This document shows positions 5,656 to 54,834 of a stretch of 64,000 nt of DNA, piece after piece. Below the pieces are notes generated by a model, which did not search any database, was not told the DNA's origin, and was given only the letters and a program-made list of their open reading frames with translations. Position numbers and translations under genes: made by a program. The first letter of the stretch is position 1; the number at the start of each line of letters is the position of its first letter. The DNA is from Candidatus Aenigmatarchaeota archaeon (GTDB lineage: Archaea > Aenigmatarchaeota > Aenigmatarchaeia > GW2011-AR5): assembly GCA_016180945.1 (NCBI GenBank), contig JACPAG010000001.1:19900-83899 (forward strand), in the 5' to 3' direction.

Positions 5656-6702
5656 ATGTTAGTTCTTGAGGACGGCACTGTTTTTTACGGAAAGCCTTTT
5701 GGCGCTTCAAAGGCGGTTTCTGGAGAGGTAGTTTTCAATACAGGCATGGTTGGCTATACGGAAGCCATAACAGACCCCTCTTATAAGGGCCAGATTTTAT
5801 GCCAGACATACCCGTTGATAGGCAATTACGGCGTTTCCGAAGACGATTTCGAGTCTGATTCTCCAAAAATAGAAGGGTATATAGTAAGCGAAATCTGCAA
5901 AAAACCGAACCACAGGACGGCGCAAAAATCTCTGGACAGTTTTCTGGCAGAGCACGGTGTTCCCGGCATAGCCGGCATAGACACGCGCGCGCTTACAAAA
6001 AAGCTGCGCATGAAAGGCGTTATGCTTGGCGTTCTTTCAACTGAAGACGGGACTGCGCCAGAAACAAAAATACCTGACCCGAACGAGACTGACCTTGTTG
6101 AAAAAGTCACTATAAGCAAACCTATATTCTATGAAAATGCAGGCAAAACCGTCGTCGTGATGGACTGCGGCGTTAAAATGAATATAATACGCTCTTTGCT
6201 GGAAAGAAAACTGAATGTGATAAGAGTCCCGGCGTCGTATGCAGCAGACAGGATAATGGAACTGAAGCCGGATGGCATACTGATTTCCAACGGTCCTGGC
6301 GACCCGAAAAAAGTGGATTACGTCATTGAAGCAACAAGGCAACTCATAGAATACAAGATGCCCGTCTTTGGAATATGCCTCGGCATCCAGATTCTTGCTC
6401 TAGCAATGGGCGGAAATACGTACAAGCTCAAGTTCGGTCATCGTGGACAAAACCATACGTGCATGGATTTGAAAACAAAGAGGTGCTACATAACATCGCA
6501 AAATCATGGGTATGCTGTTGATGCGGCTTCGCTCAACGACTGTGAAATCACTTTTCTCAACGTTAACGACAAGACAGTCGAAGGAATAGAACACAAATCA
6601 CTTCCTGTCTTCGGTGTTCAATTTCATCCAGAAGCCGCGCCAGGCCCTACGGACACGAAATTTCTTTTTGATAAATTTGTGAAGATGATGAACAATGAAT
6701 AA
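5656..6702 (+). CDS. carA: carbamoyl-phosphate synthase small (glutaminase) subunit
   Basis: MLVLEDGTVFYGKPFG N-terminus. Class I GATase triad context (PVFGICLGIQILA, FGVQFHPEA). ATG at 5656 preferred over the TTG at 5647. Confidence 0.93.
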   Translation: MLVLEDGTVFYGKPFGASKAVSGEVVFNTGMVGYTEAITDPSYKGQILCQTYPLIGNYGVSEDDFESDSPKIEGYIVSEICKKPNHRTAQKSLDSFLAEHGVPGIAGIDTRALTKKLRMKGVMLGVLSTEDGTAPETKIPDPNETDLVEKVTISKPIFYENAGKTVVVMDCGVKMNIIRSLLERKLNVIRVPASYAADRIMELKPDGILISNGPGDPKKVDYVIEATRQLIEYKMPVFGICLGIQILALAMGGNTYKLKFGHRGQNHTCMDLKTKRCYITSQNHGYAVDAASLNDCEITFLNVNDKTVEGIEHKSLPVFGVQFHPEAAPGPTDTKFLFDKFVKMMNNE

Positions 6703-6703
6703 T

Positions 6704-6736
6704 ATGGCGATCGACTTGCGAAGCAAGGGGATAATG
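6704..6736 (+). promoter_or_regulatory. leader module B (ATGGCGATCGAC + hairpin CTTGC-GAA-GCAAG + GGGATA + ATG) filling the carA-carB gap
   Basis: Starts 1 nt after the carA TAA and ends on the carB ATG (6734). Member of the recurrent family described in findings. Confidence 0.7.
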
Positions 6737-9700
6737 AATGAAATCAAGAAAGTCCTGATACTGGGCAGCGGTGCAATCACTATTGGCCAGGCGGGAGAAT
6801 TTGATTATAGTGGCGCTCAAGCCATAAAGGCGTTCAGGGAAGACGGGATAAAAACCGTTTTAGTCAACCCTAACATAGCTACTATACAGACAGACGAAAA
6901 ATTTGTAGACAAGGTTTATTTTCTGCCTGTCAAGGGCGAGTTTGTTGAGCAGATAATCGCCAAAGAAAGGCCGCAGGGAATCTTATTGGGATTCGGCGGC
7001 CAGACAGCGCTGAACTGCGGCCTGGAGTTGCACGAGAAGGGTGTGCTGGAAAAATATGATGTAAGGGTTCTGGGAACGAACATAGAAAGCATAATAAAAG
7101 CCGGCAACAGGCAGGAGTTCAAAAAACTCATGGAATCTAACGGCATCCAAATACCAAAGAGCGCTTCTGCTTTTTCCATAGACGAGGCGGCAGAAATAGC
7201 AAACACTATTGGTTATCCCGTCATGGTGAGGGTTGCTTACACCCTTGGCGGTCAGGGAACGGGCGTCGCGTACAACGATTCACAACTGAAAGAGATTGCG
7301 TCCCGTGGGTTGACGCACAGCAGGATTCATCAGATACTTGTGGAAGAGTACCTGCATAAGTGGAAGGAGGTCGAGTACGAGGTTATGCGGGACCGCGAGG
7401 ACAATTGCATAATTATTTGCAACATGGAGAACTTCGACCCCATGGGAATCCATACCGGTGAGAGCATCGTCGTTGCGCCGTCACAAACTCTGACGAACAA
7501 GGAATACCATAAGCTTCGGGAAATGTCTTTCAGGGTTATTCGCTCCTTAGGAATAGTAGGCGAATGCAATATCCAGTATGCGATCAACCCGAAAAACGGC
7601 GACATACGCGTCATCGAAGTCAACTCGCGTCTGTCAAGAAGCTCTGCGCTGGCCAGTAAAGCGACAGGTTATCCGATTGCGTACATAGCTGCAAAATTAT
7701 CTATGGGCTATGCGTTGCCGGAGCTGGCGAACAAAGTCACGAAAGTAACAACAGCCTGTTTCGAACCGGCGCTGGATTATGTTGTTGTGAAAATTCCAAG
7801 GTGGGATTTCCAGAAATTCCGCCGCGCTAACAGGAATCTCGGCACGCAGATGAAATCCATAGGAGAGGTCATGTCCATAGGCCGCAATTTCGAAGAGGCG
7901 CTGCAGAAAGCTGTCAGGATGCTGGACATAGGCCGTGAACTCACGGATGATATAGAAGGCGGCGTCCAAAGAACAAAGGACGAACTTGTGCATCCGACGG
8001 ACAAAAGAATATTTTATATTGCCGGGGCGCTGAAGAATTTTTCTGTCGCCGAGGTCGGCGAATTAACGGGCATAGACGAGTGGTTCATTCACAAGATAAA
8101 GAACATCGTGGATATAGAAGAGAAAATAAAATCGTCTTTTACAACTGATGTCCTTAAGGAAGCAAAAAAACACGGATTTTCTGACAGAAAGATAGGAGAA
8201 CTGGCAGGAAGGGGCGAAGAATCTATAAGGGCGCTCCGGAAAAAGCATGGCATAATTCCTGTTGCCAAACATATAGACACGATGGCCGCGGAATGGCCCG
8301 CAAAAACAAATTACTTGTATCTTACCTATGGAGACGAGGACGACATAGAGTTTGAAAAAAAGAAAAAAGTCATTGTCCTCGGCTCAGGATGCTATCGTAT
8401 CGGCTCCAGTGTCGAGTTTGACTGGTGCTGTGTAAACCTGGCTATGGCATTAAAGAAAGATGCTGATGAGGTGGTAATGATAAATTACAACCCGGAAACC
8501 GTATCAACGGACTACGATATCCTGGACAAGCTTTATTTCGAGGAACTTTCTCTTGAGCGCATAAGGGATATAATAGAAAAAGAGAACCCTCTGGGCGTCG
8601 TCGTTTCAGTGGGCGGCCAGATACCAAATAACCTTGCGCTAAAGCTTTCTGAATTCGCGCACATACTGGGGACGTCAGCAGAAACTATAGACGCCGCTGA
8701 AGACCGCTCTAAATTTTCTTCCCTGCTCGACAATCTGGGAATAAGCCAGCCGTGGTGGAACAAATTTACGGACTTTCAGGAGGCAAAAAAATTTGCAGGC
8801 AGAATAGGATATCCTGTGCTGATACGCCCTTCATACGTCTTGTCGGGGGCCGCCATGAAAGTCGTATTTAATGAAAACGACCTGGAACACTTTCTAAAGT
8901 CGGCGGCAGAAATTTCCAGCAGCGGCGTTGTTATATCAAAATTCTTTTCAGACTCGCGCGAGATAGAAGTAGACGCGGTCAGCGACGGAAAGAATGTTTT
9001 CATAGGCGCAATTATAGAGCATGTGGAGAATGCAGGCATCCATTCCGGCGATGCCACGCTGGTCATACCTGCTTTTAGCATAACAGAAGATGAGAAGAAA
9101 AAAATAATAGAAGCGACGAAAAAGCTTTCTCATAGCCTTCACATCATTGGACCTTTCAATGTCCAGTACCTGGTTAAGAACGGCGGGATTTTTGTGATAG
9201 AATGCAACATACGCGCGTCAAGAAGCATGCCGTTCGTTTCAAAGGCCATAGGAATAAATCTGATGGAACTGGCGGCCGCGGCTATTATGGGAAAACGCAT
9301 AGATAAAAAAGAGGTTTCCCCGGATATTTTTGCTGTGAAGGTCCCGCAGTTTTCTTTCATGCGCCTTGAGGGCGCGGACCCTGTGACAGGCGTTGAAATG
9401 GTTTCTACAGGCGAAGTCGCCTGCTTTGGCAAAACCCTTGAAGAGGCTTTCGTAAAAGCCCTTATATCGTCCGGCCTTGAAATACCGAAACCCGGTGATG
9501 ACATACTGATAACAGTAAGCAAAAAAGAAAAAATAATCGACAATGCAAAAATCCTTTCAAAAAGGTTCAAAATAAACGCGACAGAACATACGGCAGAGGA
9601 GCTTGTAAAAAACGGCGTCGACTGCAGGATGCTTTACAAGGTAACTGAAAACAGGCAGCCGAACATACTTGATTACCTGGTGGAAAAAAAACTGAAGCTG

Positions 9701-12755: not shown

Positions 12756-13298
12756 TCAGGCGTTTTCTTCTGTCTCGTCGCTTTCTTCTTCGGCTCCGCC
12801 GTTTTCATCGGCCGCTTCGCTGCTCTTTTCGTCTTTTGCGTCGCGCGCCATCCCTAACATAAGAAGGTCGTCAAAATCCTTGGCTATGCGCCTGGTTTTG
12901 CGCATGAAGCTTTTCATGGAGCTTTCGACCTTGTCCATCAGCCTGTTGACCGTATTAGACGTGAGCAGATAGCCTTTCACGTAGTCGTTTCCGGCAGGAA
13001 TTTTAACAAATTCAACAAGTCCCAATGACCTCCATTTTCTCAATTCCTCGTATGTCTGGCTCTGCGAAACCTCCAGAATCTGGGAAATTTTTTCGATGGA
13101 AACCGGTACGTTGTCTTTTTTGTACCGTAGCAGCTCTAAAAGCAGTTTTGAGTGCTTCGCCCGGCTTTCCTTTCGCCTCAGGCCGAGACGCCTTACAAGA
13201 ACAGCCGACAGATCATCCACTGTCAGGTTTATTTTTGTGTCAGGCGGCGAAATCCTCTGGAAAACCATGTCGCTGAGTTTTTTCTTCATTCTCCCCAC
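12756..13298 (-). CDS. winged-helix regulator with acidic C-terminal tail
   Basis: 180 aa. VSIEKISQILEVSQSQTYEELRKWRSLGLVEFV HTH-like core. The tail is DEKSSEAADENGGAEEESDETEENA. Confidence 0.6.
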   Translation of the reverse strand: MGRMKKKLSDMVFQRISPPDTKINLTVDDLSAVLVRRLGLRRKESRAKHSKLLLELLRYKKDNVPVSIEKISQILEVSQSQTYEELRKWRSLGLVEFVKIPAGNDYVKGYLLTSNTVNRLMDKVESSMKSFMRKTRRIAKDFDDLLMLGMARDAKDEKSSEAADENGGAEEESDETEENA

Positions 13299-13362
13299 CT
13301 TTGCTTCGCAAAGTTGTCGAGTGCCATATTATTCATATCCAATTTACTGGTTATCCCTAACA

Positions 13363-13452
13363 TCACATCTTCCTTATATACCACCGGTTAAAACCGGTGG
13401 TTTGCAAGAAGATGGGATCCAGAAGACATTGTATTTCAATGTCTTCTTAGAT
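13363..13452 (-). repeat. nested stem-loop element, family S, minimal copy (candidate structured RNA)
   Basis: On the minus strand: AAGACATTG-aaata-CAATGTCTT, GGATCCCAT, then CATCTTC ... [CCACCGGT-TTTA-ACCGGTGG] TATATAAG GAAGATG. Same architecture as 53871-53986 and 63839-64000. Lies directly 3' of the dCMP deaminase gene. Confidence 0.6.
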
Positions 13453-16718: not shown

Positions 16719-16836
16719 ATGGCTACGAGCAGGATTACTTTGAATCCCGCTGTACAGAAGGATTATTTCAATAATCCTTCTTGTATCGACTAGCCAAATT
16801 TTATAAGATGGTATAGACTCGCGAAGCGAGGGTATG
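16719..16836 (+). promoter_or_regulatory. histone leader: nested hairpins (16719-16795) followed by leader module B (16808-16836)
   Basis: ATGGCTACGA ... TCGACTAGCC is an outer stem enclosing GGATT-ACTTTG-AATCC and an 11-12-bp hairpin AGAAGGATTATT/AATAATCCTTCT. Then ATGGTATAGAC + CTCGC-GAA-GCGAG + GGT + ATG (histone start at 16834). Confidence 0.6.
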
Positions 16837-18048: not shown

Positions 18049-18130
18049 ATGGCACTCGACTACGACTGGAAGGAGCAAAAATTATAAAATGGCAATCGAC
18101 TTTTTGCATCAGCAAAAAGGGGATGATATG
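18049..18130 (+). promoter_or_regulatory. tandem leader modules A (18049-18088) and B (18089-18130) in front of radA
   Basis: A: ATGGCACTCGAC-TACGACTGGAAGGAGCAAAAATTATAAA. B: ATGGCAATCGAC + CTTTTTGC-ATCA-GCAAAAAG + GGGATGAT + ATG (radA start at 18128). Confidence 0.7.
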
Positions 18131-24092: not shown

Positions 24093-24169
24093 ATGGCATG
24101 CGACTAACGATAAACTGACGCACAGCGGTGCGTCTGGTTGTTTCGTAGCGTTGCGGAGGGGCATGTATG
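24093..24169 (+). promoter_or_regulatory. variant leader module in front of ligT with GACGCAC hairpin
   Basis: ATAAT-ATGGCATGCGAC ... GACGCAC-AGCG-GTGCGTC ... GCGGAGGGGCATGT-ATG (ligT start at 24167). A 34-nt core (24112-24145) recurs inverted at 39651-39684. Confidence 0.55.
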
Positions 24170-27616: not shown

Positions 27617-27731
27617 TCCGTCTTACATTCGGATAGAACGCCCAGACTTTAGAAGTCTGGGATGATATAGCGTTCTATCCGATGTCACAACCAGCCTCTA
27701 AAGAGGCTGGTTGTTGACTTTAGTAACGGAT
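27617..27731 (+). repeat. nested stem-loop element related to family S
   Basis: Outer stem ACATTCGGATAGAACGC / GCGTTCTATCCGATGT encloses CCCAGAC-TTTAGAA-GTCTGGG. It is followed by AACCAGCCTC-TAAA-GAGGCTGGTT. The loops share the CTAAAG/TTTAGA core seen in family S. Confidence 0.55.
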
Positions 27732-27834
27732 GAAAAACCTCTTATTTGTTTGGATTTTCCGGCATACCCCTCAATTTCGCTATGTTTAAAAGTGTTCAAA
27801 ACCAATTAATCTGAGTGATGACAATGTTTATAAA

Positions 27835-27921
27835 ATGGCACTCAACTTGCGTAGTAAGTAGAGGAGCGGAGCGACCAAACATTATAGTATGGCAATCGAC
27901 TTGCGGAGCAAGGGGATTATG
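27835..27921 (+). promoter_or_regulatory. degenerate + intact leader modules B in tandem in front of pepA
   Basis: 27835: ATGGCACTCAAC + CTTGC-GTA-GTAAG (decayed). 27889: ATGGCAATCGAC + CTTGC-GGA-GCAAG + GGGATT + ATG (27919). Confidence 0.7.
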
Positions 27922-31120: not shown

Positions 31121-32026
31121 ATGAAGAAACAGAATGGAACAGAAACAAGCTCATTTGGGACAAGCGGAAGATTCAATCACGATTCTTCTAAATTTTATTC
31201 AAGCAAGATGTACTCTGATACTTCTAAATCAAAATTAGACCACTCTCAAGAAAATCCTATTTCAGAAAAAATTATCAATAAAATATTCTGCAAATCAAGC
31301 GAAAAAATGGAAGAATTACCAGATAATAGCATTCATTTAATGATAACATCACCACCTTATAACGTAGGCAAAGAATATGATGAGAACCTTTCTATTGAAG
31401 ATTACAGAAGTTTACTAAAATCTGTAGTCAAAGAAGTACACAGAGTTCTTGTTGTCGGTGGTAGAGCATGCATTAATGTGGCGAATCTTGGAAGAAAACC
31501 ATACATTCCACTTCATAGTTTCATAATTGAAGATATGCTAAATCTAGGGTTTTTTATGCGTGGCGAAATTATTTGGAATAAGGGTTCAAGTGCTGGAACT
31601 TCCATGGCTTGGGGGAGTTGGTTATCGGCAACAAACCCTACCTTAAGAGATATACATGAATACATACTGATTTTTTCAAAAGGTAATAATGGACGTTTAA
31701 ATTTAGATAAAAAAGAAAGCACAATAACAAAAGAAGAATTTATGGAATTTACAAAAAGTGTTTGGTCTTTCCCTACTCAATCTGCACGGGCGGTAGGGCA
31801 TCCTGCACCATTCCCAATAGAATTACCATTGAGATTAATCAAGTTCTATACATTCAAAGGTGATGTGGTTTTAGACCCATTCGTGGGTAGTGGAACAACT
31901 GCGATAGCTGCCAGAAAATTAGAAAGGAAATATGTTGGATACGACATAAGCAAAGAATATTGCAAACTTGCAGAAACACGAATTAAAAAGGAATTTGCAC
32001 AGAAAACTCTCAGGGTTGCTGTCTAA
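31121..32026 (+). CDS. beta-class DNA methyltransferase (N4-cytosine or N6-adenine)
   Basis: Motif IV SPPY (LMITSPPYNVGKEYD) precedes motif I (LDPFVGSGTTAIAA). This order defines the beta class; SPPY is more typical of m4C enzymes. Confidence 0.88.
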   Translation: MKKQNGTETSSFGTSGRFNHDSSKFYSSKMYSDTSKSKLDHSQENPISEKIINKIFCKSSEKMEELPDNSIHLMITSPPYNVGKEYDENLSIEDYRSLLKSVVKEVHRVLVVGGRACINVANLGRKPYIPLHSFIIEDMLNLGFFMRGEIIWNKGSSAGTSMAWGSWLSATNPTLRDIHEYILIFSKGNNGRLNLDKKESTITKEEFMEFTKSVWSFPTQSARAVGHPAPFPIELPLRLIKFYTFKGDVVLDPFVGSGTTAIAARKLERKYVGYDISKEYCKLAETRIKKEFAQKTLRVAV

Positions 32027-32652
32027 TCATTCCACCTATCAACCCATCTTTTGTAAACATCATATTTTATGTCATCCTTGACCCAATTGATTGAGATTTT
32101 CAATGTTTCTTCATGCTCTATCATTTGTTTGATTGCTTCTTTGCTAAATTCAACACCTCTTGGATTCGTTCCTGCTTTTGGCATTTTGAGATATTTCTTA
32201 CGTCCTAACAGGTTAAATATCTCTTTCTGAACTTTAATCGGTATTAGGAAAAAACTGTCTTTATTTTTGCTCCACCATACTTGAACAAGAATAATATCAC
32301 ATTTCGGGTTGTAATTTTTGATAAATTTTCTTGAACTTTTTGCATCCACAGTCCAAACGGCTTTGACGCCACCATTTCCTGTTATCGTCTTTATCGATAC
32401 CCCTTTTCCATTAACTTTTACATCTATTTCTGGCTCTGTTGTTGGTATATCTGTGTCGACATTTTCTTCTCCAAATTTATGTATAAGTAGACCACCGATA
32501 ATCTTTTCTCTTAAAGAACCGACTTCCATACCGATTTTATTAGCCCTTGAACTCTCAATTTCGGCTATTCTGAACAATTTTGGTAATTTATTCTGAATCT
32601 TTGATTTGGTAAAGTTGTCTATGAAGAGTTTAGTCAAATTTGCTTCTGACAT
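32023..32652 (-). CDS. putative type II restriction endonuclease (PD-(D/E)xK-like)
   Basis: Convergent with the methyltransferase with a 4-nt overlap. Candidate catalytic stretch TEPEIDVKVNGKGVSIKT. Very AT-rich. Confidence 0.55.
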   Translation of the reverse strand: MSEANLTKLFIDNFTKSKIQNKLPKLFRIAEIESSRANKIGMEVGSLREKIIGGLLIHKFGEENVDTDIPTTEPEIDVKVNGKGVSIKTITGNGGVKAVWTVDAKSSRKFIKNYNPKCDIILVQVWWSKNKDSFFLIPIKVQKEIFNLLGRKKYLKMPKAGTNPRGVEFSKEAIKQMIEHEETLKISINWVKDDIKYDVYKRWVDRWND

Positions 32653-32753
32653 AAATTTTATTAATTTTTAGCGCTTAAATACCAACCAAAGAGTTTACAG
32701 AACCATTTTTAGTAAAAAGTAATGTTTAAAAATTCTGTTAACTATTAAAAATA

Positions 32754-34076
32754 ATGAAAAAGAACATCGATATTAACCAATTAATGGTAAATCCAAAAAA
32801 CTATCGTTTCGATCCGGTAGAAAATCAAAATGAAGCAATTGACTTGATGCTCGAAGAAAAGGAAGAAGAAATACTAAATTTGGCTAAACATATAGTAGAT
32901 CATGGACTAGATAAGGCAAAAGATTCTAGAGTCTTAGAAATAAAGAAAGACCTCTATCTTGTTCTTGATGGGAACAGAAGAGTAACAGCAATTAAATGCA
33001 CAACAGATCCTTCTTTAATAAAAAGTGATTCATTAAAAAGCAAATTTATCAATTTGAGAAAAGGGAAAGGAAAAATTCCAAATAAAGTTAATTGTTTCGT
33101 GTATAAAGATGAAAAAGATGCGGCAGAATGGATTAAACTTGATCATACTGGAAAGAATAGTGGAGTAGGTCAAGATCCTTGGGAAGCTGCGGGAAAGGAA
33201 AGGTTCGATTGGGATTTTGGCGGAAAACTTTCTCCTGCTATGCAGGCAATTAACCTATTTGAACATGAAACTAAACACGGGCTTAATAAGAAAAAACTTA
33301 AAATTTCTACCGTCAATCGTATAATTTCTAACCCAGAGTCTCGATCGTTTTTGGGGATAGAAATAAGTAATGGAGGAATCGTTTTAACTTCAACAAAGAG
33401 AGAGGTAATTGAGAGGTTAGACAAACTTTTCAATAAAATTATAATAGACGATGTTCCAGTTTCAGCTGTGTACCGCACTCCAGATGCAATTAAATTCATG
33501 GAAAATCTTTTTGGGTCTAAGCCTAAAATTGCCAGAACAAAAATATCTATTTCTCCAAAAGGAATTCCAAAAAAGAAAAGTAGGTCAAAGCGTACTTTTC
33601 CTAGATCTGGTAGCAGAAATTTTTTAATACCCGCAAGTTGTATTTTGCAAATTTATGAATCTAGAATTAATAACATATATCATGAATTAAGATCTTTGCC
33701 CTTAGATGTGGGAACCAATGCAGTAGCGGTTTTGTTTAGAGTTTTTTTAGAAACTGGTCTAGATCACTATGCTGAAAAATTTGGGTTTGCTTTTGGAACT
33801 AATTTTGGAACTAAAATAAAACTTGCAGGAAAAATTACAAAAATAACTGATGATTTAGAGAAAAGGGGTTATAAAAAAACTCAATTAAATAACATTAGAT
33901 CTGTAACGAGAAAAGGTAATGCAATCCTGTCAATTGATTACTTCCACGAATACGTACATTCTTTTAAAAACAACCCCACACCTATTGATCTAATATATAA
34001 ATGGGATAATCTTCAGGAATTTTTCGAAATACTTTGGGAAGAGATTTCAAAAAAAGAAAAAAGAGGCAAAAAATGA
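32754..34076 (+). CDS. ParB N-terminal (ParB/Srx-fold) domain protein with large uncharacterised C-terminal region
   Basis: IDINQLMVNPKNYRFD and LVLDGNRRVTAIK match the ParB-N boxes. The remaining ~330 aa are unassigned. The stop overlaps the next ATG (ATGA). Confidence 0.7.
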   Translation: MKKNIDINQLMVNPKNYRFDPVENQNEAIDLMLEEKEEEILNLAKHIVDHGLDKAKDSRVLEIKKDLYLVLDGNRRVTAIKCTTDPSLIKSDSLKSKFINLRKGKGKIPNKVNCFVYKDEKDAAEWIKLDHTGKNSGVGQDPWEAAGKERFDWDFGGKLSPAMQAINLFEHETKHGLNKKKLKISTVNRIISNPESRSFLGIEISNGGIVLTSTKREVIERLDKLFNKIIIDDVPVSAVYRTPDAIKFMENLFGSKPKIARTKISISPKGIPKKKSRSKRTFPRSGSRNFLIPASCILQIYESRINNIYHELRSLPLDVGTNAVAVLFRVFLETGLDHYAEKFGFAFGTNFGTKIKLAGKITKITDDLEKRGYKKTQLNNIRSVTRKGNAILSIDYFHEYVHSFKNNPTPIDLIYKWDNLQEFFEILWEEISKKEKRGKK

Positions 34077-34924
34077 AATACTATTCGCCGCTTAGATATC
34101 CAGGAGGAAAAGGAAAAATAACGTCCTATATGAAAGAAATAATTAAAAAAAATTCTTTGGTGGGGGGTATCTATGTTGAACCTTATGCGGGTGGAGCCGC
34201 AGTAGCCATTTCACTTCTACTGGATGAGTATGTAGATAAAATCATTATAAATGACATAGATTATTCGATATATGCATTTTGGTATTCTATGATAAATAAA
34301 ACTAAAGAACTTTGTCAATTAATAGAAAAAACGCCTATAACAATAACAGAATGGAAAAAACAAAAGAAAATTCAATCTATAAAGAATTGTGATTTACTCA
34401 CTTTAGGATTTTCTACATTATTTCTGAATCGAACAAATAGATCTGGAATATTAAAAAATGCAGGACCAATAGGTGGGTTTGAACAAAAAGGAAAGTGGAA
34501 ACTAAATGTTAGATATAGCAAATCTGACATTATAGAACGCATCAAACGTATTAGTCTTTATAAAAATCGTATTGAGATATATAATTACGATGCAATTGAA
34601 TTAATTAAAACTATTAACAAGTCATTACCTTCGAATACTTTGATATATTTTGATCCTCCTTATTATATGAAAGGCAAAGAATTGTACTTTAATTATTACA
34701 GACGTAAGAATCATGAAGAAATAAGTAATAAAATAAAGAAAATTAATAAACATAGATGGATTGTTACATACGATAATGTAGCATCGATAAGAAAGTTATA
34801 CAAATTGTATAGGAAGAAAAAATTCTTGCTTAATTATAGTGCAGGTAGATCTAATAGAGGTGAGGAAGTTATGATTTTTTCAAATAACATTAATGTTGTC
34901 GGCCGCCGTATATTGGATAGATAA
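34073..34924 (+). CDS. Dam-family (D12 class) N6-adenine DNA methyltransferase
   Basis: MKYYSPLRYPGGKGKI N-terminus (motif X/I region) and IYFDPPYY motif IV. Confidence 0.88.
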   Translation: MKYYSPLRYPGGKGKITSYMKEIIKKNSLVGGIYVEPYAGGAAVAISLLLDEYVDKIIINDIDYSIYAFWYSMINKTKELCQLIEKTPITITEWKKQKKIQSIKNCDLLTLGFSTLFLNRTNRSGILKNAGPIGGFEQKGKWKLNVRYSKSDIIERIKRISLYKNRIEIYNYDAIELIKTINKSLPSNTLIYFDPPYYMKGKELYFNYYRRKNHEEISNKIKKINKHRWIVTYDNVASIRKLYKLYRKKKFLLNYSAGRSNRGEEVMIFSNNINVVGRRILDR

Positions 34925-43576: not shown

Positions 43577-44686
43577 ATGGAAACAGAAACGCCTTTTTCT
43601 GAGCTTCCAGAAGCATTAGTAGAAGAGATGCTGAATAAGTCAGATGAATTGGGCAGAGACTTATCAAACACATTCAAAGATATAAATGATAAAAAGTCAG
43701 AGGTCAGAAAAAAGCTCTATGAACTTGAATATCTGAAGAAGGATAGCGATATAATAACGACACCATCGTACCCTACAACTTGTGGTGTTGATGGCTCTTA
43801 TGGCGGTGAAAATCTTTTATCAACCGACATAACTGCTATGGCAAGTGTAGCGGTTGAAGGACTTATACCGCCAAAGGAAGTTAAATATTGGGAAAACCCC
43901 CACTATATTTGTAAAATTCTTACATTACAACACAGCGATGCCACAAGCTTGGTTGCAAGAGCTATTATGATGACTATGGAATTGGAGTTAGCAACAAAAT
44001 CACCTCATGACGTTGTGTTTATGGATGGTTCTTTAACCACACCATTTATTTATTTCAATCAAGCACTAAGCAGAATAAAAGACGTTTCACCAGAACTTTC
44101 AAGTTATTTTATAGAAAGATTAGGATTAACATTGGATTCTTATATTGAGGTATTAGCTGCTGTAAGAAGTGATAAAATATATTCAAGCATACCAAAGTAT
44201 ACAAGCAGGAAGGAAATAGCGAAACTTGTTGGTCTAAATAATTACGAAGATAGGGGTCTTCTCTCTTTCATACTTGAACCTTCAGAGTTTGTTGGGCCAA
44301 TGCCGTTAGAACAACCGAATCAAGAATGGCACATAAATAACCCATTACAATTCAGCATATTATTTGATAAAATTATAAGTTCTCTGAAAGAAATCTATGT
44401 CATATACTATAGGCCTTTTAGTCACATCCCAGCTTTGCGCATAGAGATGTCTAAAAATATAGCTCTGAATAATAATAGATTATCAATACTGCTTGAATCG
44501 GTAAAATTACAATGTGTAGGTGGTGGCATTATGGAACCATATCCTTTGTATTTGGCTGATAGAATGGTAAAGCACTTGGGGACAGCTATTCCAGCTATAC
44601 GTAAGACAATGACTCAAGAAATGGCTGGAGAATGGGGAGATGACGTAACAAGCTTATATTTAGCAATGCACGGGTACAGAACGTGA
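43577..44686 (+). CDS. NurA-like nuclease
   Basis: Motif series CGVDGSYGGE ... MMTMELELA ... VVFMDGSL matches the NurA D/E/D catalytic layout. Met at 43577 chosen. AT-rich. Confidence 0.7.
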   Translation: METETPFSELPEALVEEMLNKSDELGRDLSNTFKDINDKKSEVRKKLYELEYLKKDSDIITTPSYPTTCGVDGSYGGENLLSTDITAMASVAVEGLIPPKEVKYWENPHYICKILTLQHSDATSLVARAIMMTMELELATKSPHDVVFMDGSLTTPFIYFNQALSRIKDVSPELSSYFIERLGLTLDSYIEVLAAVRSDKIYSSIPKYTSRKEIAKLVGLNNYEDRGLLSFILEPSEFVGPMPLEQPNQEWHINNPLQFSILFDKIISSLKEIYVIYYRPFSHIPALRIEMSKNIALNNNRLSILLESVKLQCVGGGIMEPYPLYLADRMVKHLGTAIPAIRKTMTQEMAGEWGDDVTSLYLAMHGYRT

Positions 44687-44690
44687 TTAT

Positions 44691-46454
44691 ATGGAAAATG
44701 AAGAAATAGACGTAAACAAAGCTTTTGATAAAGCGGAGAAGATAGGTGTTATTGGTTCTCCATCCTCAACTAATCGATTAACTATTGATATTCTTGGAAC
44801 TGCAATGAATAAGAAACTTGTTGGCACTCTATGTGTATTCAAACATATGCAGGACGGAAGAGAGCATTTTTCATTAGGCCAAATTACAGAAATTCAATTA
44901 AAGAATGTTTGGAGTGAAGACCCCACAATGAGAGGTCTAATAAGACAAAAGGGTAGGGTAGACCCTATAACAGAAAAACAAGATACACACACTGCGAGTA
45001 TGATAGTAAGCTCGGTATTTAGTAAAGCCGATTCTGTAATGGGTCAGAGCATCTTAGGAACAGTACCTTCAACGGGGAGTCCTATAAAATTAATCAATAA
45101 TGATATTATGAAAGGACTTTTAGTTAATCATCAAAATGAATTATCTTATCTTGGGCGAGCTTATGGTTCTGATATTTTAATGCCTATGTGGTTCAAGCAT
45201 TTTGGCAAAGAAACTGGTGGGGTTGGAGAAGCTTACCATATAGGGATATTTGGTAAAACAGGTTCTGGAAAATCTGTATTCGCAAAAATGGCAATGCTTG
45301 GTTATGCAAGACATCCATCTATGTCTATGTTCATTATTGACCCGCAAGGCGAATTTGCGAAAGAAATTAAAAGAGATACAAAATTAAAGGGAATATTGGA
45401 AAAGAAATTGCACAGAGAAGTTAAAATATACGATTTACATAATCTTGTGATGACTGGATGGGAACTTTTTAAAAAGACCTTAGTTAATTCAGAGTTCTTT
45501 GATAAACTAACAATTTGGGAAGAAATAAAACCCAGAGCTGCAGAAGTCGTAGTCAATATTTTGAGAGCAAAAATGGGTGGGCAAGCACAACTTGGACAAC
45601 ATACAGAAATACCACCATATAAAGCGTTTGAACAAGCAGCTTTTGATCGCGTATGGAATGCCTTATCACGGGATGATATATGGACTAAGATTTACTACGC
45701 CAAAGATTCAAGAGAAAGAGTACAGTTACAATATGCTGATGCAAATAAAGATGAATTCTTCGAGATATGGAAACAAGTAGCAAATCTATTCAAATATGAA
45801 GGCCGTTCAGGTGTTAAGAAAATAATTGATTTAGTCAATGAAGTTGTAAGCAAAGAAAATGAGGAGAATAGGCCTATTACTATTATAGATTTATCCGAAT
45901 CAGAAATACCAGACGATATATTATGGAACGAAAATATAAGTTTCGTTGTCATAAAAGAACTTTTGGATAAATTAAAGTCTGAGGCCGAAAAAGAGTTTAA
46001 GAAAGAAAGAAATTTAAACTGCTTGGTTGTAATAGATGAAGCTCATAGATTAGCACCAAGAGAAAGAAAAGAGAACGAAAATTTAGAAGTACTTAAGGCA
46101 ACATTTATTGATGCTGTAAGGACTACGAGAAAGTTTGGTCTTGGTTGGATGTTTATTAGTCAAACACTATCAAGCTTAGATAGAGGTATAGTGGAACAAT
46201 TACGAGCTTATGTCTTTGGTTTTGGTTTAGGATGGGGTATAGAACTACAAGCTCTGAAAGAATTGATTGGTGGTAATCGTGATGCTATAAGCTTGTACCA
46301 ATTATTTAATGATCCTCAAAGCTCATTTGGAGAAAAACAATACCCATTTATGATGGTCGGGCCTCTGTCGCCATTATCATTTTCAAGTATACCTTTATTC
46401 GTTACGGCTTTGAATTTTCCTGACGAATTTTTATCTATTAATTTTTCTGAATAG
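44691..46454 (+). CDS. HerA-like (DUF87) hexameric ATPase/translocase
   Basis: Starts 4 nt after the nurA-like stop. N-terminal barrel-like region (IGVIGSPSSTNRLTIDILG ... GTLCVF). Walker A IFGKTGSGKS. Walker B CLVVIDEAHRLAP. Confidence 0.8.
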   Translation: MENEEIDVNKAFDKAEKIGVIGSPSSTNRLTIDILGTAMNKKLVGTLCVFKHMQDGREHFSLGQITEIQLKNVWSEDPTMRGLIRQKGRVDPITEKQDTHTASMIVSSVFSKADSVMGQSILGTVPSTGSPIKLINNDIMKGLLVNHQNELSYLGRAYGSDILMPMWFKHFGKETGGVGEAYHIGIFGKTGSGKSVFAKMAMLGYARHPSMSMFIIDPQGEFAKEIKRDTKLKGILEKKLHREVKIYDLHNLVMTGWELFKKTLVNSEFFDKLTIWEEIKPRAAEVVVNILRAKMGGQAQLGQHTEIPPYKAFEQAAFDRVWNALSRDDIWTKIYYAKDSRERVQLQYADANKDEFFEIWKQVANLFKYEGRSGVKKIIDLVNEVVSKENEENRPITIIDLSESEIPDDILWNENISFVVIKELLDKLKSEAEKEFKKERNLNCLVVIDEAHRLAPRERKENENLEVLKATFIDAVRTTRKFGLGWMFISQTLSSLDRGIVEQLRAYVFGFGLGWGIELQALKELIGGNRDAISLYQLFNDPQSSFGEKQYPFMMVGPLSPLSFSSIPLFVTALNFPDEFLSINFSE

Positions 46455-47591
46455 TGAATATGAAGAATTATCAAAAGACTTGTAAGTTTCGTCTCTCTCA
46501 GATCGTGGAATTACCCATCTATTCAACATAAAAGAAGCATTATATCTTACATCATTTCTTAGAGTCTTTGCATTCTTGTTCTCCTCTAACAAAAGTTGTT
46601 TCCAATTTTTGACTAAAGGAGCTAAAAATAACTCTCTTTTTATACCATGATATAACAAATCATTTGGTAATCCCAATTTTTTAAGCGCCTCTCTAATAAC
46701 TACTCTCTTATTTCGTGGCCCTGTTCCCCATTTGCTGTTTTTACCACTACATCCAGATTTTTTAGCTAACATAGATAAATTCTTGTATTCTCCATTGGAA
46801 AAATGAAATTCCCCAGAGCCTTTTGTCCAACCAACATGAAAAAATTCTGGCCCATCAGGAATTTTGATCCTATCGTACATAGAACTCTTACCAAAAGCAG
46901 AAGAAGTTGTCACAGCCAATAATTTCCCATAAAATTTCTTACCACTTATTAAGGATTTTTTCCCATGATATTTTTTACGAAAATCTTTGGCAACTTTATC
47001 AGATGTTATAAGAGAACTGACTAATTTTCCACTTAGTATTAAATTATATGGCGGAACTGCTCCTATTACAAACCCGTCCATTATATGTTTTAAATTATTT
47101 GCTTTAGTTTTACTGTTCCAGCCGATAAAACTATCTCTATCTTTTAAGGCATATACAGGATCGGCTAATCCTATTATTCCTATTAGTTTATTATTGTATT
47201 CATCAATAACTAAATATCTCAACCTTCTTCCATAACCAGCAGATATAGGAATAGACCAATGCAATTTAACCCAATTGAATAAATTAGATTCTTCTTTATT
47301 TTTAGAATCAAAGCAAACTAACTTGGGCGATATTTCTTCAGGTCTAATTTCATTTCCATTAGCGATATATTTCAAGATAAAATGTTTATCATATTTTTGT
47401 ATAAATTCCTTATTCTTGAGTAATAAATGATTCACAGAAAAATTATTCAATCTTCTCAACGACGGCTTTGTATAGTTTTTAGGCTTTAATACACCTTTCT
47501 TGTAAACAAATCCTTGGTCTCTAAGTAATGAGATTAATTTATGTTTTGTGCGAGTTCTTCTCTGTTTAACAGAAATATATTGAAATGACAT
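46431..47591 (-). CDS. DUF4338 (Druantia DruA-like) domain protein
   Basis: HWSIPISAGYGRRLRYLVIDEYNNKLIGIIGLADPVYALKDRDSFIGW matches my recollection of the DUF4338 core. The 3' end overlaps the herA-like gene by 24 nt (convergent). Confidence 0.6.
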   Translation of the reverse strand: MSFQYISVKQRRTRTKHKLISLLRDQGFVYKKGVLKPKNYTKPSLRRLNNFSVNHLLLKNKEFIQKYDKHFILKYIANGNEIRPEEISPKLVCFDSKNKEESNLFNWVKLHWSIPISAGYGRRLRYLVIDEYNNKLIGIIGLADPVYALKDRDSFIGWNSKTKANNLKHIMDGFVIGAVPPYNLILSGKLVSSLITSDKVAKDFRKKYHGKKSLISGKKFYGKLLAVTTSSAFGKSSMYDRIKIPDGPEFFHVGWTKGSGEFHFSNGEYKNLSMLAKKSGCSGKNSKWGTGPRNKRVVIREALKKLGLPNDLLYHGIKRELFLAPLVKNWKQLLLEENKNAKTLRNDVRYNASFMLNRWVIPRSERDETYKSFDNSSYSLFRKINR

Positions 47592-47903: not shown

Positions 47904-48956
47904 ATGAACGAAATAGGAATTACCGGTTACGGTTGTTACATACCGCGCTTCCGCATAAAAGTCGAGGAGATAGCGAAGGTCTGGGGTCAGGAAGCGGAAA
48001 ACATAAAGCGCGGCCTTTTAGTCGAGGAAAAAAGCGTGCCTGACGTGGACGAGGATACGATAACAATAAGCGTCGAAGCCGCCAGAAACGCGCTGGCGCG
48101 CGCAAACATAGGCGCTGAAAAAATCGGCGCGCTATTTATAGGCAGTGAATCGCACCCGTATGCTGTCAAGCCGTCCGGAACTGTGGTGGCAGAAGCGATC
48201 GGCGCATCGCCGCGAATTCTGGTCGCTGATTTTGAGTTTGCCTGTAAAGCCGGCACAGCAGCCATCCAGTGCTGCTACGGCCTGGTCAAGTCCAATGAAA
48301 TAGAATACGGTTTGGCAATTGGTTCTGATACGTCGCAGGGCAGGCCTGGCGATGCCCTGGAATATACTGCATCAGCCGGCGGCGGCGCGTTTATAATCGG
48401 CAAAAATCCAGTCGCGTCCATAGAAGGCATGTTCTCTTACACGACGGATACGCCTGATTTTTGGCGCCGCGAGGGCGAAGACTTCCCGCGCCACGGCGCG
48501 CGCTTTACAGGCGAGCCTGCCTATTTCAGGCATGTCGTTGAAGCCACAAAAGGGTTGATGACAAAATTATCTTTAAGGTCTGGCGATTTTGACTATGCCG
48601 TATTCCATACCCCGAACGGAAAATTCCCGCTGCGCGCCGCCCAGTTGCTGGGGTTTGAAAAAGAAAAGGTCCTGCCGGGCCTTATTGTAACAAAAATCGG
48701 GAATGCGTATTCAGGCGCGAGCCTGCTCGCCCTTTGCAATATTTTAGACGCTGTTGCGAAACCCGGTCAGCGTATTCTTCTTACCTCATACGGTTCGGGC
48801 GCCGGCAGCGATTCGTTCTCGCTGCTTGTAACCGACCGGCTGTTAGAAGCCCGCGATGCAGCGCCGAAAACAGATTTTTATGTTAACCGGAAATCTTACG
48901 TGACATACGGCGAATACGTGAAGATGAGGAAAAAACTGAAGGGTGTAACGGAATGA
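47904..48956 (+). CDS. archaeal HMG-CoA synthase
   Basis: [29 protein letters not shown]-terminus. Catalytic Cys context [13 protein letters not shown]. Confidence 0.9.
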
Positions 48957-48970
48957 AAATGAAAAATAAG

Positions 48971-49008
48971 ATGGCAATCGACTTTTGCCGGAGCAAAAGG
49001 GGATAATG
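48971..49008 (+). promoter_or_regulatory. leader module B between HMG-CoA synthase and the 99-aa ORF
   Basis: ATAAG-ATGGCAATCGAC + CTTTTGC-CGGA-GCAAAAG + GGGATA + ATG (49006). Here the upstream ATG is out of frame and its reading frame stops at TAA. Confidence 0.7.
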
Positions 49009-49305
49009 AGCTTGCTGACAGACCCTGCGAAATCTGTGAGTATGCGTGAAATAGTATCTAGGTTGCGCGGCCAGGGTGTTAGCCCGGGCCTGGGCTCGGA
49101 CGGCTTACAAATATCATACCGGGGTCATATACCACAGACAGGCGACAGCCCGGAAAGGGCGTCTTATGATATCCGCTCTGGAGATAGATACTTCGGTATT
49201 GCAACCGTCGTAGATACGTCAAAAGGCAGCAGAAGAAAAATGCATATACAGATTTATTCAGAAGACCTGTCAGGCGGAGACCTGTGTTTTGACGCAGATT
49301 TTTAG
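49006..49305 (+). CDS. 99-aa hypothetical protein inserted in the HMGCS-thiolase-DUF35 cluster
   Basis: MSLLTDPAKSVSMREIVSRLRGQG... No family recognised. Has its own leader module. Confidence 0.5.
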   Translation: MSLLTDPAKSVSMREIVSRLRGQGVSPGLGSDGLQISYRGHIPQTGDSPERASYDIRSGDRYFGIATVVDTSKGSRRKMHIQIYSEDLSGGDLCFDADF

Positions 49306-49327
49306 GTGTTGAATAATGAAAAATGAT

Positions 49328-49404
49328 ATGGCAACAGTCTTGCGACTGGAAGGAGCTAAAATTATAAAATGGCGCTCGACTTTGCCGGAGCAAAGGGGAG
49401 TATG
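49328..49404 (+). promoter_or_regulatory. tandem leader modules A (49328-49368) and B (49369-49404) in front of the thiolase gene
   Basis: A: ATGGCAACAGTCTTGCGACTGGAAGGAGCTAAAATTATAAA. B: ATGGCGCTCGAC + CTTTGC-CGGA-GCAAAG + GGGAGT + ATG (49402). Confidence 0.7.
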
Positions 49405-50565
49405 AGGAACGTTTGTGTTGTTGGCGCAGCCCAGACAAAATTCGGCGAGCTCTGGGACAGGTCGCTACGCGACTTGATAGTGGAAGCCGGCATTGGCGCC
49501 GTAAAAGACGCCGGAATTGAAAAGAGCGCCATCCAGAGCTTGTACGTAGGCAATATGTCTGCCGGCCGTTTTGCCGGCCAGGAGCATCTGGGCGCACTGG
49601 CTGCGGATTTTCTCAGCCTTAGAGTACCTGCCACGAGATGCGAAGCCGCCTGCGCATCCGGCAGCGTTGCTTTCCGCGACGCGTATTATGCCGTTGCCTC
49701 CGGCGACATAGACGCCGCCCTTGTTATAGGCGCAGAAAAAATGACTGATGTTCACGGCTCTGGTGCGCTGACAACGCTTGCCGCTGCCGGCGACCAGGAG
49801 TGGGAAGCGTCTATCGGGTTGACGTTCGCCGGTCTGTACGCGCTGATTGCAAGAAAGCATATGGTCGATTTCGGCACCACAAGAGAACAGATGGCGGCCG
49901 TTTCCGTAACAAACCACAAGAACGGGTTGAAAAACAAACTCGCCCAGTTCCAGATGAAAATAACCATAGAAGACGTGCTGAACTCTGCTATGATAGCCGA
50001 TCCCTTGAGGCTTTTTGATTGTTCTCCGATAACAGACGGCGCGGCCGCTGTTGTAGTAGCCAGCGAGTCCGCCGCCAAAAAACTCTCTACCCAGCCCATT
50101 TATGTCCTTGGTACGGGCCAGGGATCCGATTCGATAGCTCTGCACGACCGTGCGTCGTTTACAGAGCTTCTGGCTACCAAGGCCGCCGCCAAAAAGGCAT
50201 TCGAGCAGGCAGGCATCGGCAGAAACAAGATCGATACCACAGAAGTACATGATTGCTTTACAATAAATGAGATTATTTCCCTGGAAGATCTGGGTTTCGT
50301 TGAGAAGGGTAAAGGCGGCAAGTTCGCCGAAGAAGGAAAAATAGATTTGAATGGAGAACTGCCAACCAATACGTGCGGCGGCCTTAAGGTATGCGGCCAT
50401 CCAGTAGGCGCTACGGGTGTCCGCCAAATAGTCGAGTTGGCCCGCCAGCTGCGCGGCCAATGTTTCAACCCAATCAACGGCGCAGAAATAGGGTTGAACT
50501 TGAACATAGGCGGCTCTGGCGCAACTGCCGTGGTAAATATATTCGGCAAAGAGCCGAGGTATTGA
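49402..50565 (+). CDS. acetyl-CoA acetyltransferase (archaeal thiolase)
   Basis: Catalytic Cys CEAACASGS. C-terminal GGLKVCGHPVGATG. Confidence 0.9.
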   Translation: MRNVCVVGAAQTKFGELWDRSLRDLIVEAGIGAVKDAGIEKSAIQSLYVGNMSAGRFAGQEHLGALAADFLSLRVPATRCEAACASGSVAFRDAYYAVASGDIDAALVIGAEKMTDVHGSGALTTLAAAGDQEWEASIGLTFAGLYALIARKHMVDFGTTREQMAAVSVTNHKNGLKNKLAQFQMKITIEDVLNSAMIADPLRLFDCSPITDGAAAVVVASESAAKKLSTQPIYVLGTGQGSDSIALHDRASFTELLATKAAAKKAFEQAGIGRNKIDTTEVHDCFTINEIISLEDLGFVEKGKGGKFAEEGKIDLNGELPTNTCGGLKVCGHPVGATGVRQIVELARQLRGQCFNPINGAEIGLNLNIGGSGATAVVNIFGKEPRY

Positions 50566-50960: not shown

Positions 50961-51006
50961 GACCCGGTTGTTTCTTGTAGACCTACCTTATAGTACTTGA
51001 GCAGAC

Positions 51007-51228: not shown

Positions 51229-51234
51229 ATAGAA

Positions 51235-54799: not shown

Positions 54800-54834
54800 A
54801 AAGCATAAAAGCATTTTTTGTCATAGAAAGTCGT

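Follow-up and report, generated by a model that had tools for sequence, protein, structure and literature searches.

In the archaeal genome studied here, a short hairpin module recurs directly in front of the start codons of unrelated genes. As judged from sequence comparison, its copies are insertions: the orthologous sites of close relatives are empty. The copies arrive exactly at start codons, usually at ATGA. The explanation that we favor, with a probability of about one half, is that the module is a family of short (~35- to 50-nt) noncoding insertion elements that lands on start codons, is read through by ribosomes, and is confined to a narrow Aenigmarchaeota (DPANN) clade. We also put forward, more tentatively, a sharper form of this explanation: a hairpin element of ~40 nt that homes to ATGA start codons and survives as a self-contained translational hand-over cassette that combines a mini-ORF with a restart signal and a regenerated ATGA.

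Most known small palindromic repeats are bacterial and lie behind genes. The element described here is archaeal, sits on the start codons of such core genes as radA, carB, thiolase, rpl1, and rpl44e, and appears from its sequence to be read by ribosomes. If confirmed, it would provide a natural experiment on how leaderless or coupled translation tolerates inserted structure, and it would inform both how a mobile element selects start codons and how archaeal 5' leaders originate. It would then be a kind of archaeal mobile DNA previously undescribed, through which the housekeeping genes of a reduced DPANN genome have repeatedly been given new, structured, translated leaders. We found no published description of this element in the literature.

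The window, by which we mean the whole 64-kb stretch of DNA that was analyzed, contains nine intact copies of the module (A/T run, ATGGC, hairpin, and G-run) and four decayed or variant copies (Table 1). RadA, thiolase, and CarA assign the window to an Aenigmarchaeota MAG; thiolase and CarA are encoded with 100% identity on an NCBI contig of 216,689 bp. The head of the element reads ATGGC-N-(A/C)TCGAC, and the copy cores measure 28 to 37 nt. The box pattern ATGGCNNNNGAC matched 12 times in the window, against 1.31 matches expected and a maximum of 5 in 100 shuffles. Ten of these matches are module copies; the other two, at 12851(-) and 55333(+), lie inside ORFs, carry no hairpin, and resemble chance. 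We then built a covariance model from the module copies and ran it over the window and the relatives' loci. It recovered the intact copies at E<1e-5, with the exception of the divergent histone copy, and gave weaker scores to the decayed copies. No hairpin-bearing copy within a coding region was found by the model in the window or the relatives' loci. When metagenomes were scanned for the box and G-run alone, with no hairpin required, two real copies came back, both with perfect hairpins, along with nine chance matches, all without a hairpin. That perfect hairpins were found without being required is independent support for the fold. A pattern scan of viral contigs for the module gave 0 matches, and a scan of genome contigs with ATGGCNNTCGACN{0,4}TTGCN{3,4}GCAA gave, among the matches listed, chance bacterial ones only.

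An earlier note on this DNA, made from the letters alone, had reported the module at a series of positions. All of these positions carry the module, but the list was incomplete: the intact minus-strand copy at 13327 and the decayed copy at 49328-49356 had been overlooked. The decayed copy that it gave at 27835 is present, while the family membership of its variant at 24093 (ligT) is doubtful given the low score. The scan with a covariance model, which the note had proposed, found the intact copies and none with a hairpin in coding regions of the window and the relatives' loci. The note had also stated that the genes served share no pathway. Identities from Pfam and synteny (carA/carB, histone, RPA/RadA, LigT, M17 peptidase, HMG-CoA synthase, thiolase, family-B polymerase, and B12-binding radical SAM enzyme) confirm that they are unrelated. 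Its failure to recognize a known riboswitch, leader, or repeat family agrees with Rfam, which gave 0 matches at the gathering threshold over the whole window and only sub-threshold chance matches over 48900-49450.

Table 1. Module copies and associated features in the window and in relatives (d, distance between the ATG of the element and that of the gene)
Coordinates	Strand	Site	Features	Covariance model
6695-6733	+	carA/carB junction	39-nt insert; left ATG(A) 6695, box ATGGC 6704	
6710-6732	+	carB copy, hairpin	ATC GA CTTGC gaa GCAAG GG GAT; carB ATG 6734; d=30, in frame	42.3 bits, E=3e-9
13290-13336	-	Copy before 177-aa gene (12756-13289)	Intact; left ATG 13336, box 13327, gene ATG 13289; hairpin CTC GA CAACTTTGC gaa GCAAAGGTG GG GAG	60.4 bits, E=2e-14
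16808-16835	+	Histone copy, divergent	ATGGTATAGAC; outer helix ATA/TAT, stem CTCGC/GCGAG	18 bits, E=0.026
18049-18076	+	rpa-radA spacer, decayed upstream copy	Box intact, hairpin lost	21.3 bits, E=0.003
18089-18127	+	radA copy, intact	ATC GA CTTTTTGC atca GCAAAAAG GG GAT + 3-nt linker GAT; radA ATG 18128; d=39, in frame	46.1 bits
24093-24134	+	ligT variant (membership doubtful)	Box ATGGCATGCGAC, then different hairpin GACGCAC agcg GTGCGTC	10.2 bits, E=4.5
27818-27863	+	pepA left ATGA and decayed copy	ATGA 27818; decayed copy 27835-27863, one G-T pair	13.4 bits, E=0.55
27889-27918	+	pepA copy, intact	ATC GA CTTGC gga GCAAG GG GAT T; pepA ATG 27919	39.5 bits
48953-49005	+	HMG-CoA synthase/99-aa ORF (small ORF) junction	53-nt insert; box 48971; gene ATG 49006; hairpin ATC GA CTTTTGC cgga GCAAAAG GG GAT	50.3 bits
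49316-49401	+	Thiolase tandem	Left ATGA 49316, decayed copy 49328-49356, intact copy 49369-49400	
49369-49400	+	Thiolase copy, intact hairpin	CTC GA CTTTGC cgga GCAAAG GG GAG T; thiolase ATG 49402	45.7 bits
54768-54799	+	polB copy, intact	CTC GA CTCTGC gaaa GCAGAG GG GAG	44.5 bits
61097-61129	+	Radical SAM copy, intact	Hairpin identical to 49369; B12-binding radical SAM ATG 61130; d=33, in frame	45.6 bits
L130:1337		Relative	Before DUF35-type gene; found by covariance model	
L135:3768		Relative	Before rpl1; found by covariance model	
L135:18883		Relative	Found by covariance model	
L135:1047		Relative	Before spt5; found by covariance model	
L001:2146		Relative	Histone	
L117		Relative		
L125		Relative	rpl44e	
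L131		Relative	Thiolase	

Fold and covariation of the hairpin

The hairpin begins with an outer helix of 3 to 4 bp, in which the N-TC ahead of GAC pairs with the GA(T/G) after GGG, and which covaries among copies (ATC/GAT, CTC/GAG, ATA/TAT). Ten copies have A-U as the first pair of this helix, and seven have C-G. An internal loop, 5'-GA/5'-GG, separates it from an inner helix of 5 to 10 bp that reads C, a T-run, and then GC, and that is capped by an apical loop of 3 to 4 nt, mostly GAA, GGA, CGGA, or GAAA (GNA-type). The 3' strand is the G-run, GGGGA(T/G), usually with one further base after it. The G-run thus lies partly in the fold: its first G makes the closing pair of the inner helix, GG lies in the internal loop, and GAK belongs to the outer helix. 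Total helix length varies (10 to 15 bp equivalents). The single-stranded ATGGC and the GA/GG loop are invariant among copies. At radA the region reads ...TAA aaaataaaataaataat ATGGCACTCGAC tacgactggaaggagc aaaaattataaa ATGGCAATCGAC TTTTTGC atca GCAAAAA GGGGAT gat ATG, and the decayed copy at 18049 has GACTGGAAGGAG in common with 49344 and 61008. Two unrelated 9-bp hairpins lie just upstream of the 61097 copy, within 61033-61082.

The minimum free energy fold of each copy is the structure described above, at -8 to -18 kcal/mol and with z-scores of -1.8 to -3.3. We aligned 17 copies, drawn from five genomes, in structural register with padding (162 cells). Paired cells made up 99.4%, versus 81.4 ± 1.9% in shuffles (0 of 500). 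With slid partners 43 to 61% were paired, a control that is flattered by the alignment having been made with the structure in mind. We counted 26 double changes, and both sides change in 9 of 13 pairs; there were no G-U pairs and no one-sided changes in the 162 cells. The stem of the earlier note is therefore present and covaries as it had claimed, with pairing well above both kinds of control, but the fold extends further outward than the note had drawn it, through the NTC...GAK helix beyond the GA/GG loop.

Covariation is also seen between orthologous copies. The histone copy has ATA/TAT and a 5-bp stem in the window and ATC/GAT and an 8-bp stem at L001:2146, and the copy at 13289 differs from its orthologue L135:18883 in both the stem and the outer helix. 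Orthologous copies show symmetric 3-bp changes of the arms as well. These compensatory and symmetric changes speak for either selection or templated correction. The absence of G-U pairs fits a process at the level of DNA, such as quasi-palindrome correction or single-stranded DNA recognition; an RNA helix kept by selection would not usually lack them, and this counts against the explanation that we favor. However, the GA/GG loop is both invariant and asymmetric, and thus correction alone does not explain everything. The hairpin could be kept as a structure for propagation or as a block on independent initiation.

We considered several known hairpin classes and rejected them. In a kink-turn, tandem sheared G-A/A-G pairs follow a bulge of 3 nt; the loop here is 2x2 and symmetric (5'-GA/5'-GG), and none of the copies has a bulge, which excludes a K-turn (L7Ae site). 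A CRISPR is a regularly spaced array of identical repeats; here the copies are single or irregular tandems of two, lie at gene starts, and differ in their stems. A palindromic operator of the transcription factor type does not fit, since the outer half-sites are 13 to 23 nt apart and their distance varies with stem length. A BHB intron and an integron attC site were ruled out on anatomy.

The module arrives by insertion at start codons

In relatives, the sites that carry the module in the window are empty. The gap between rpa and radA is 3 nt in L001 and L002 versus 96 nt in the window. In the same two relatives pepA has a plain TATA ~23 nt before the gene and no module, and the regions upstream of ligT are without a module. 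The junction between the HMG-CoA synthase gene and the small ORF has no module in L131, L132, and L133 and is instead a 4-nt start/stop overlap (GTGA in the first, ATGA in the other two), and the small ORF/thiolase junction is an ATGA overlap in L133. In L134 and L135, carA and carB overlap by 8 nt (...aacaATGAATGAa...) with no module between them; this ancestral 8-nt overlap had been predicted from the flanks in the window before the relatives' loci were seen. No module copy was found in the loci of the more distant relatives L002 (RadA 72% identical) and L132 and L133 (thiolase 83 to 84% identical), or in L134, which is 9.95 kb of sequence of a closer relative. A weak match in L132, at 6835-6874, was rejected as a gene start without a hairpin.

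The relatives have copies of their own at other genes. At least five genomes harbor the module family, and 39.5 kb of the L001 genome contains about seven copies. That relatives have empty sites together with copies at other genes points to a lineage-specific insertion element. The thiolase/DUF35 junction is filled in L130 and empty in the window and in L131, so that junctions are filled in one or the other, which indicates activity of the element in each of the two lineages after their divergence. The thiolase tandem is also found in L131, but with a triloop. Tandem boxes occur at radA, pepA, thiolase, and spt5, and in each the upstream one is without a hairpin; the decay of the upstream copies suggests repeated hits on one site.

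Placement with respect to the start codon is precise. Thirteen copies from the window and relatives end 0 to 3 nt before a start codon, and in nine of them the linker from the helix to the ATG is exactly 1 nt; in an L135 copy (GGGGATG) the outer helix runs into the ATG. An A follows the ATG in 11 of the 13, versus 39% (25/64) of other genes (binomial P of ~1e-3). All intact copies lie in sense orientation at the 5' ends of genes. The exception to this orientation is L001:5802, a variant without a box that lies antisense at the 3' end of a gene. The polB copy and the two histone copies are not adjacent to starts. The polB ATG, at 54835, is 35 nt past the copy and has a TATA-like sequence of its own, CATAAAAG (54804-54811), 23 nt before it. 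The histone start is a TTG at 16849, 14 nt past the hairpin, as judged from homology with L001.

At six sites a word containing ATGA stands on both flanks of the insert: AATGAAT at carB, AATGA at the small ORF, ATGAA at 13289, and ATGA at thiolase, pepA, and L117. This flanking repeat is 4 to 7 nt long and is not found at radA or L130:1337; it could be due to microhomology or selection no less than to a true target-site duplication. The left flank copy is the old start, which at the small ORF and in L117 overlaps the stop codon of the upstream gene. At pepA, the ATGA at 27818 sits 25 nt after a canonical TATA, TTTAAAAG (27785-27792), and we infer that it is the former, leaderless pepA start. 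In genes without the module, A/T content peaks at positions -29 to -24 relative to the ATG, and leaderless spacing is the default of this genome.

These observations also bear on whether the module is a host cis-regulatory RNA leader, that is, a protein-binding site or a gate on the G-run and AUG that places many growth-related genes under one posttranscriptional control, with mobility having merely spread the site. This idea is close to that of the earlier note. It accounts for the covariation, including compensatory change between orthologous copies, for the invariance of the single-stranded ATGGC and the GA/GG loop, and for the fixed sense orientation and distance to the AUG. The genes are informational or biosynthetic (radA, polB, histone, rpl1, rpl44e, spt5, carB, and mevalonate-pathway genes), as a regulon of this kind would have it. 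However, the same genes are without the module in close relatives, and the set of genes differs between sister genomes, which a drifting mobile element explains better than a regulon does. Moreover, upstream copies decay freely, the helices have no G-U pairs, and no candidate binding protein was identified. We therefore regard a regulatory leader as quite unlikely.

Reading frame, possible ribosome restart, and transcript start

For each of the 13 start-adjacent copies we determined d modulo 3. The value was 0 in eight copies and 2 in five, and it was never 1. All copies with a value of 2 terminate at the TGA of ATGA or at TAA-TGA, at or against the gene start. The corresponding statistic, (2/3)^13 = 0.005, is post hoc and from a small sample, and it rises to a P of ~0.03 when the nine distinct geometries are counted. 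At radA, the only copy with a 3-nt linker, the usual 1-nt linker would give the forbidden frame. The copies that are not start-adjacent (polB and the two histone copies) are exempt from the rule; at polB, d modulo 3 is 1 and there is no translational path.

The frame of the old ATG gave a second line of evidence. In seven of seven cases this frame is open through the whole insert (39 to 104 nt, with one to three hairpins), while the other two frames have at least one stop each at the six sites scored. Per-site shuffle P values for the open frame were 0.40, 0.37, 0.28, 0.16, 0.09, and 0.10, and the joint P for five independent sites (the orthologous L131 site being left out) was ~6e-4; this value, too, is post hoc and from a small sample. 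From the ATGA at 27818 a frame of 34 codons is open and ends at the TGA that overlaps the pepA ATG. From 49316 there is a single open frame, of 29 codons, that stops at the ATGA of thiolase. The left ATGA of the small ORF, at 48953, overlaps the stop of the HMG-CoA synthase gene, and the mini-ORF ends with TAA-TGA at the gene's ATG. The mini-ORF of the 13327 copy, MNNMALDNFAKQRWGE, likewise ends at a TGA overlapping the ATG of the gene. Taken together, the frame rule and the open frame of the old start suggest that the element is probably part of the mRNA and is translated through. It appears that insertions have been eliminated whenever ribosomes would have been carried beyond the gene start in the wrong frame.

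In-frame element peptides include MAIDLRSKGIM and MALDFAGAKGSM. We rejected a conserved leader peptide, since beyond MA(I/L)D the sequence varies with stem length, and we rejected a leader-peptide attenuator, for which only MA(I/L)D is conserved and there is no T-run terminator.

Next to the true start, the G-run may act as a restart signal. It lies 2 to 6 nt before the start in seven copies in the window (carB, 13289, radA, pepA, small ORF, thiolase, and radical SAM). The earlier note's spacing of 2 to 6 nt stands for these but not for histone or polB, whose starts are 14 and 35 nt past the copy. Its picture of an SD presented at the base of a hairpin is weak as it stands: the G-run is partly within the fold, and it lies 2 nt nearer to the ATG than do the SDs of GGTGA type before other genes of the window. 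However, the native coupling junction in L133 carries AAGGGGAT just before ATGA, and thus an SD-like role of the G-run in restart stays plausible. AGGGG could pair, with one G-U, with the CCUCC tail usual at the 3' end of archaeal 16S rRNA; the 64-kb window contains no rRNA.

The preferred explanation works as follows. The element inserts at a start codon, usually an ATGA that is either a start overlapping the stop of the upstream gene or a leaderless start, and ATGA then often stands on both sides of the insert. The same site can be hit again, with older copies pushed upstream, where they decay. The insert would lie within the mRNA and would be read by ribosomes as a mini-ORF. Translation would begin either at the old AUG, which would lie at the 5' end of the mRNA or be coupled to the stop of the upstream gene, or at the AUG of the element; the ribosome would melt the hairpin and either continue in frame into the gene or stop at the UGA of ATGA and restart on the overlapping AUG. 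The SD-like G-run would aid this restart, and only insertions that keep the hand-over would survive. Among the ~40 proteins scanned in the 64-kb window, we found no transposase, integrase, or reverse transcriptase.

The A/T run of the module is often BRE/TATA-like (for example, GCAAAAATTATAAAA), and with leaderless spacing such a run would put the transcript start in the 3' arm, leaving the hairpin outside the RNA, which counts against translation of the element. The main rival to our explanation is built on this: the module would be a portable promoter cassette in which the A/T run is a TATA (with BRE), transcription starts within the 3' arm or the G-run some 22 nt further on, and the mRNA has a short leader with an SD-like GGGGA. 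In archaeal core promoters the BRE/TATA lies about 26 nt ahead of the transcript start, at a fixed distance. Genes inside operons would thereby gain transcription of their own, and the palindrome would act in the DNA, in promoter melting or mobility. A/T runs (AAAATTATAAA, TTTATAAG, AATTATAAATTAT) adjoin ATGGC in most copies, the spacing of the -29 to -24 A/T peak puts +1 at the end of a 13-nt hairpin, G-U pairs are absent as for a DNA palindrome, and several inserts are inside operons. However, the L117 copy is GC-rich in place of the A/T run, and the 61097 copy has only a weak one. The distance from TATA to ATG is variable (30 to 39 nt) and that from hairpin to ATG is fixed, which is the wrong way round for a promoter. 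At two sites a TATA lies elsewhere: pepA retains the canonical one 25 nt before its old ATGA, and the 13327 copy has a better one, TATATAAG, 46 nt upstream of its box. Finally, a promoter leaves the conserved GA/GG loop unexplained, as well as the frame rule and the open old-start frames if ATGGC is outside the mRNA. For these reasons we consider a promoter cassette unlikely.

The fixed distance from hairpin to ATG could also reflect RNA punctuation, with an endonuclease cutting one base 3' of the outer helix to give a leaderless mRNA that starts at the AUG. tRNase Z cuts after the discriminator base, and Cas6 cuts at the base of a hairpin. Such a cut would agree with the 1-nt linker in nine of the 13 adjacent copies, with leaderless mRNA as the default of the genome, and with the several inserts at operon-internal junctions. 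It would make the upstream ATG irrelevant, as the leader is cut off, whereas the frame rule implies that this ATG is used. In addition, total helix length varies, the L135 ATG overlaps the outer helix, and there is no nuclease candidate. We thus consider punctuation highly improbable.

Relation to known repeats and mobile elements

Bacterial REPs are imperfect palindromes of 20 to 40 nt with a conserved tag beside the stem, dispersed, plausibly transcribed, and often clustered or intra-operon; the tag is GTAG or CGTC, and the repeats lie mostly downstream of ORFs, in both orientations, with frequent G-T pairs (PMC3733652). The module resembles REPs and REPINs in being a short imperfect palindrome with a tag beside the stem and in having many dispersed copies that are often clustered, often lie between the genes of an operon, and are plausibly transcribed. 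It differs in that neither strand has GTAG or CGTC next to the stem, the head instead being ATGGC-N-NTCGAC, and in that it is archaeal, lies in sense orientation on start codons, and has no G-T pair in the 162 aligned cells. No RAYT (Y1 HUH transposase) and no TnpA or TnpB was found among the ~40 proteins scanned in the window.

The RPEs of Rickettsia are palindromic elements of 100 to 150 bp that occupy many intragenic positions and become part of the protein. REPs, too, can lie within ORFs (PMC3733652). As with RPEs and in-frame REPs, the palindrome of the module appears to be tolerated in translated sequence, with the frame kept open. Unlike RPEs, the module is 35 to 50 nt long and always at a start codon, and 5 of the 13 copies constitute mini-ORFs of their own that end on the ATGA of the gene.

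MITEs have terminal inverted repeats of 15 to 30 bp and a size of 70 to 300 bp. The ends of the module (A/T run and ATGGC versus GGGGAKN) are not inverted repeats, and the measured inserts are 39 and 53 nt. Mobile promoters are short upstream sequences reused before nonhomologous genes (PMC3575422). The module shares with these and with MITE-borne promoters (Correia/NEMIS) its nonhomologous genes, its insertion polymorphism, and its possible promoter content, but it is much smaller, it sits at the start codon itself and not somewhere upstream, and the frame constraint points to translation. With IS200/IS605 elements and PATEs it has in common a hairpin with conserved flanks, a short specific target, strand bias, and the lack of terminal inverted repeats. 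Those elements are longer, however, have a hairpin at each end, and insert 3' of the target without duplication.

Translational coupling can involve ATGA overlaps, restart following a short ORF, and an SD hidden in a hairpin that the upstream ribosome opens. The junctions of the module resemble these, in that ATGA or TAATG overlaps are kept or recreated and an SD-like G-run lies in a hairpin before the restart. Known coupling junctions evolve in place, whereas the module brings the junction in prefabricated form, as a repeated cassette. We file the element with the small palindromic dispersed repeats, among which its target and its apparent translation are unusual.

There is a practical consequence for annotation: gene callers start proteins at the ATG of the element, as in the public RadA call (P0001, 345 aa). 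As a separate observation, short-read assemblies break at copies of the module.

Module variants and their orientation

We observed that CCTTCTTGTATCGAC is common to the window (16776-16790) and to L001, a locus from a related genome. At positions 5790-5835 of L001, this sequence leads into a complete ATC-GA-stem-GG-GAT hairpin without an ATGGC box. The box-less hairpin is antisense to an Orc1/Cdc6-like gene, at that gene's 3' end, and is the only intact copy away from a gene start.

The 12-mer GACTGGAAGGAG has three exact occurrences in the window, at 18064, 49344 and 61008. In all three cases an intact module follows about 25-90 nt downstream, and in two of the three the 12-mer lies within a decayed copy, an older upstream module whose hairpin is lost or damaged. 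The 12-mer may derive from an older subfamily, as what is left of its 3' arm and G-run.

The modules of the window show a strand bias: the + strand carries 9 of the 10 loci with a module but only 29 of the 71 candidate genes (binomial P about 0.002). Either replication direction combined with an ssDNA-based route of insertion or local clustering could explain this bias.

Effects on assembly and annotation

Two short-read Logan contigs from the same genome, L128 and L129, both terminate within a module copy (2735-2764 and 6559-6589, respectively). Therefore, the repeats break de Bruijn assemblies. Gene calling is also affected: the public RadA call, P0001 (345 aa), starts at the ATG of the element.

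A small ORF between the HMG-CoA synthase and thiolase genes (49006-49305), which has no Pfam match, encodes 99 aa, versus 140 aa in the related loci L132 and L133. Because it is flanked by modules on both sides and has an earlier stop codon, this ORF may be degenerating.

Other features of the spacers and the window

The intergenic spacers of the clade contain additional, unrelated perfect hairpins, which often lie directly upstream of a module. In the related locus L117, two such hairpins and the module share one open mini-ORF.

A spacer with G-rich repeats (ggggggtatagg...aggggggtgtgg...gtgtgggg; 50960-51700) adjoins the Cdc6/Orc1 gene, and together they are a possible replication origin region. 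The restriction-modification cluster lies in a low-GC island (31121-34924; GC of 0.34 versus 0.43-0.50 elsewhere) that was probably acquired horizontally. A second island of low GC (43577-47591; 0.34) contains the NurA/HerA-like pair, with the DruA homologue beside it, and looks like a defense island.

Coordinates of additional hairpins and neighboring genes
Feature	Sequence	Position	Details
Additional hairpin	Window	61033-61082	9-13 bp stems
Additional hairpin	Window	27625-27714	9-13 bp stems
Additional hairpin	Window	13373-13446	9-13 bp stems
Additional hairpin	Window	16756-16781	9-13 bp stems
Additional hairpin	L130 (relative)	1-90	9-13 bp stems
Additional hairpins	L117 (relative)	about 672-776	9-13 bp stems; between two ATGA
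Cdc6/Orc1 gene	Window	51702-52769	Followed by phosphoesterase, then polB
Restriction-modification cluster	Window	31121-34924	N6_N4 DNA methylase, ThaI-family restriction endonuclease, unassigned 440-aa protein, Dam-like D12 methylase
NurA-like and HerA/DUF87-like pair	Window	43577-47591	DruA (Druantia) homologue adjoining, opposite strand
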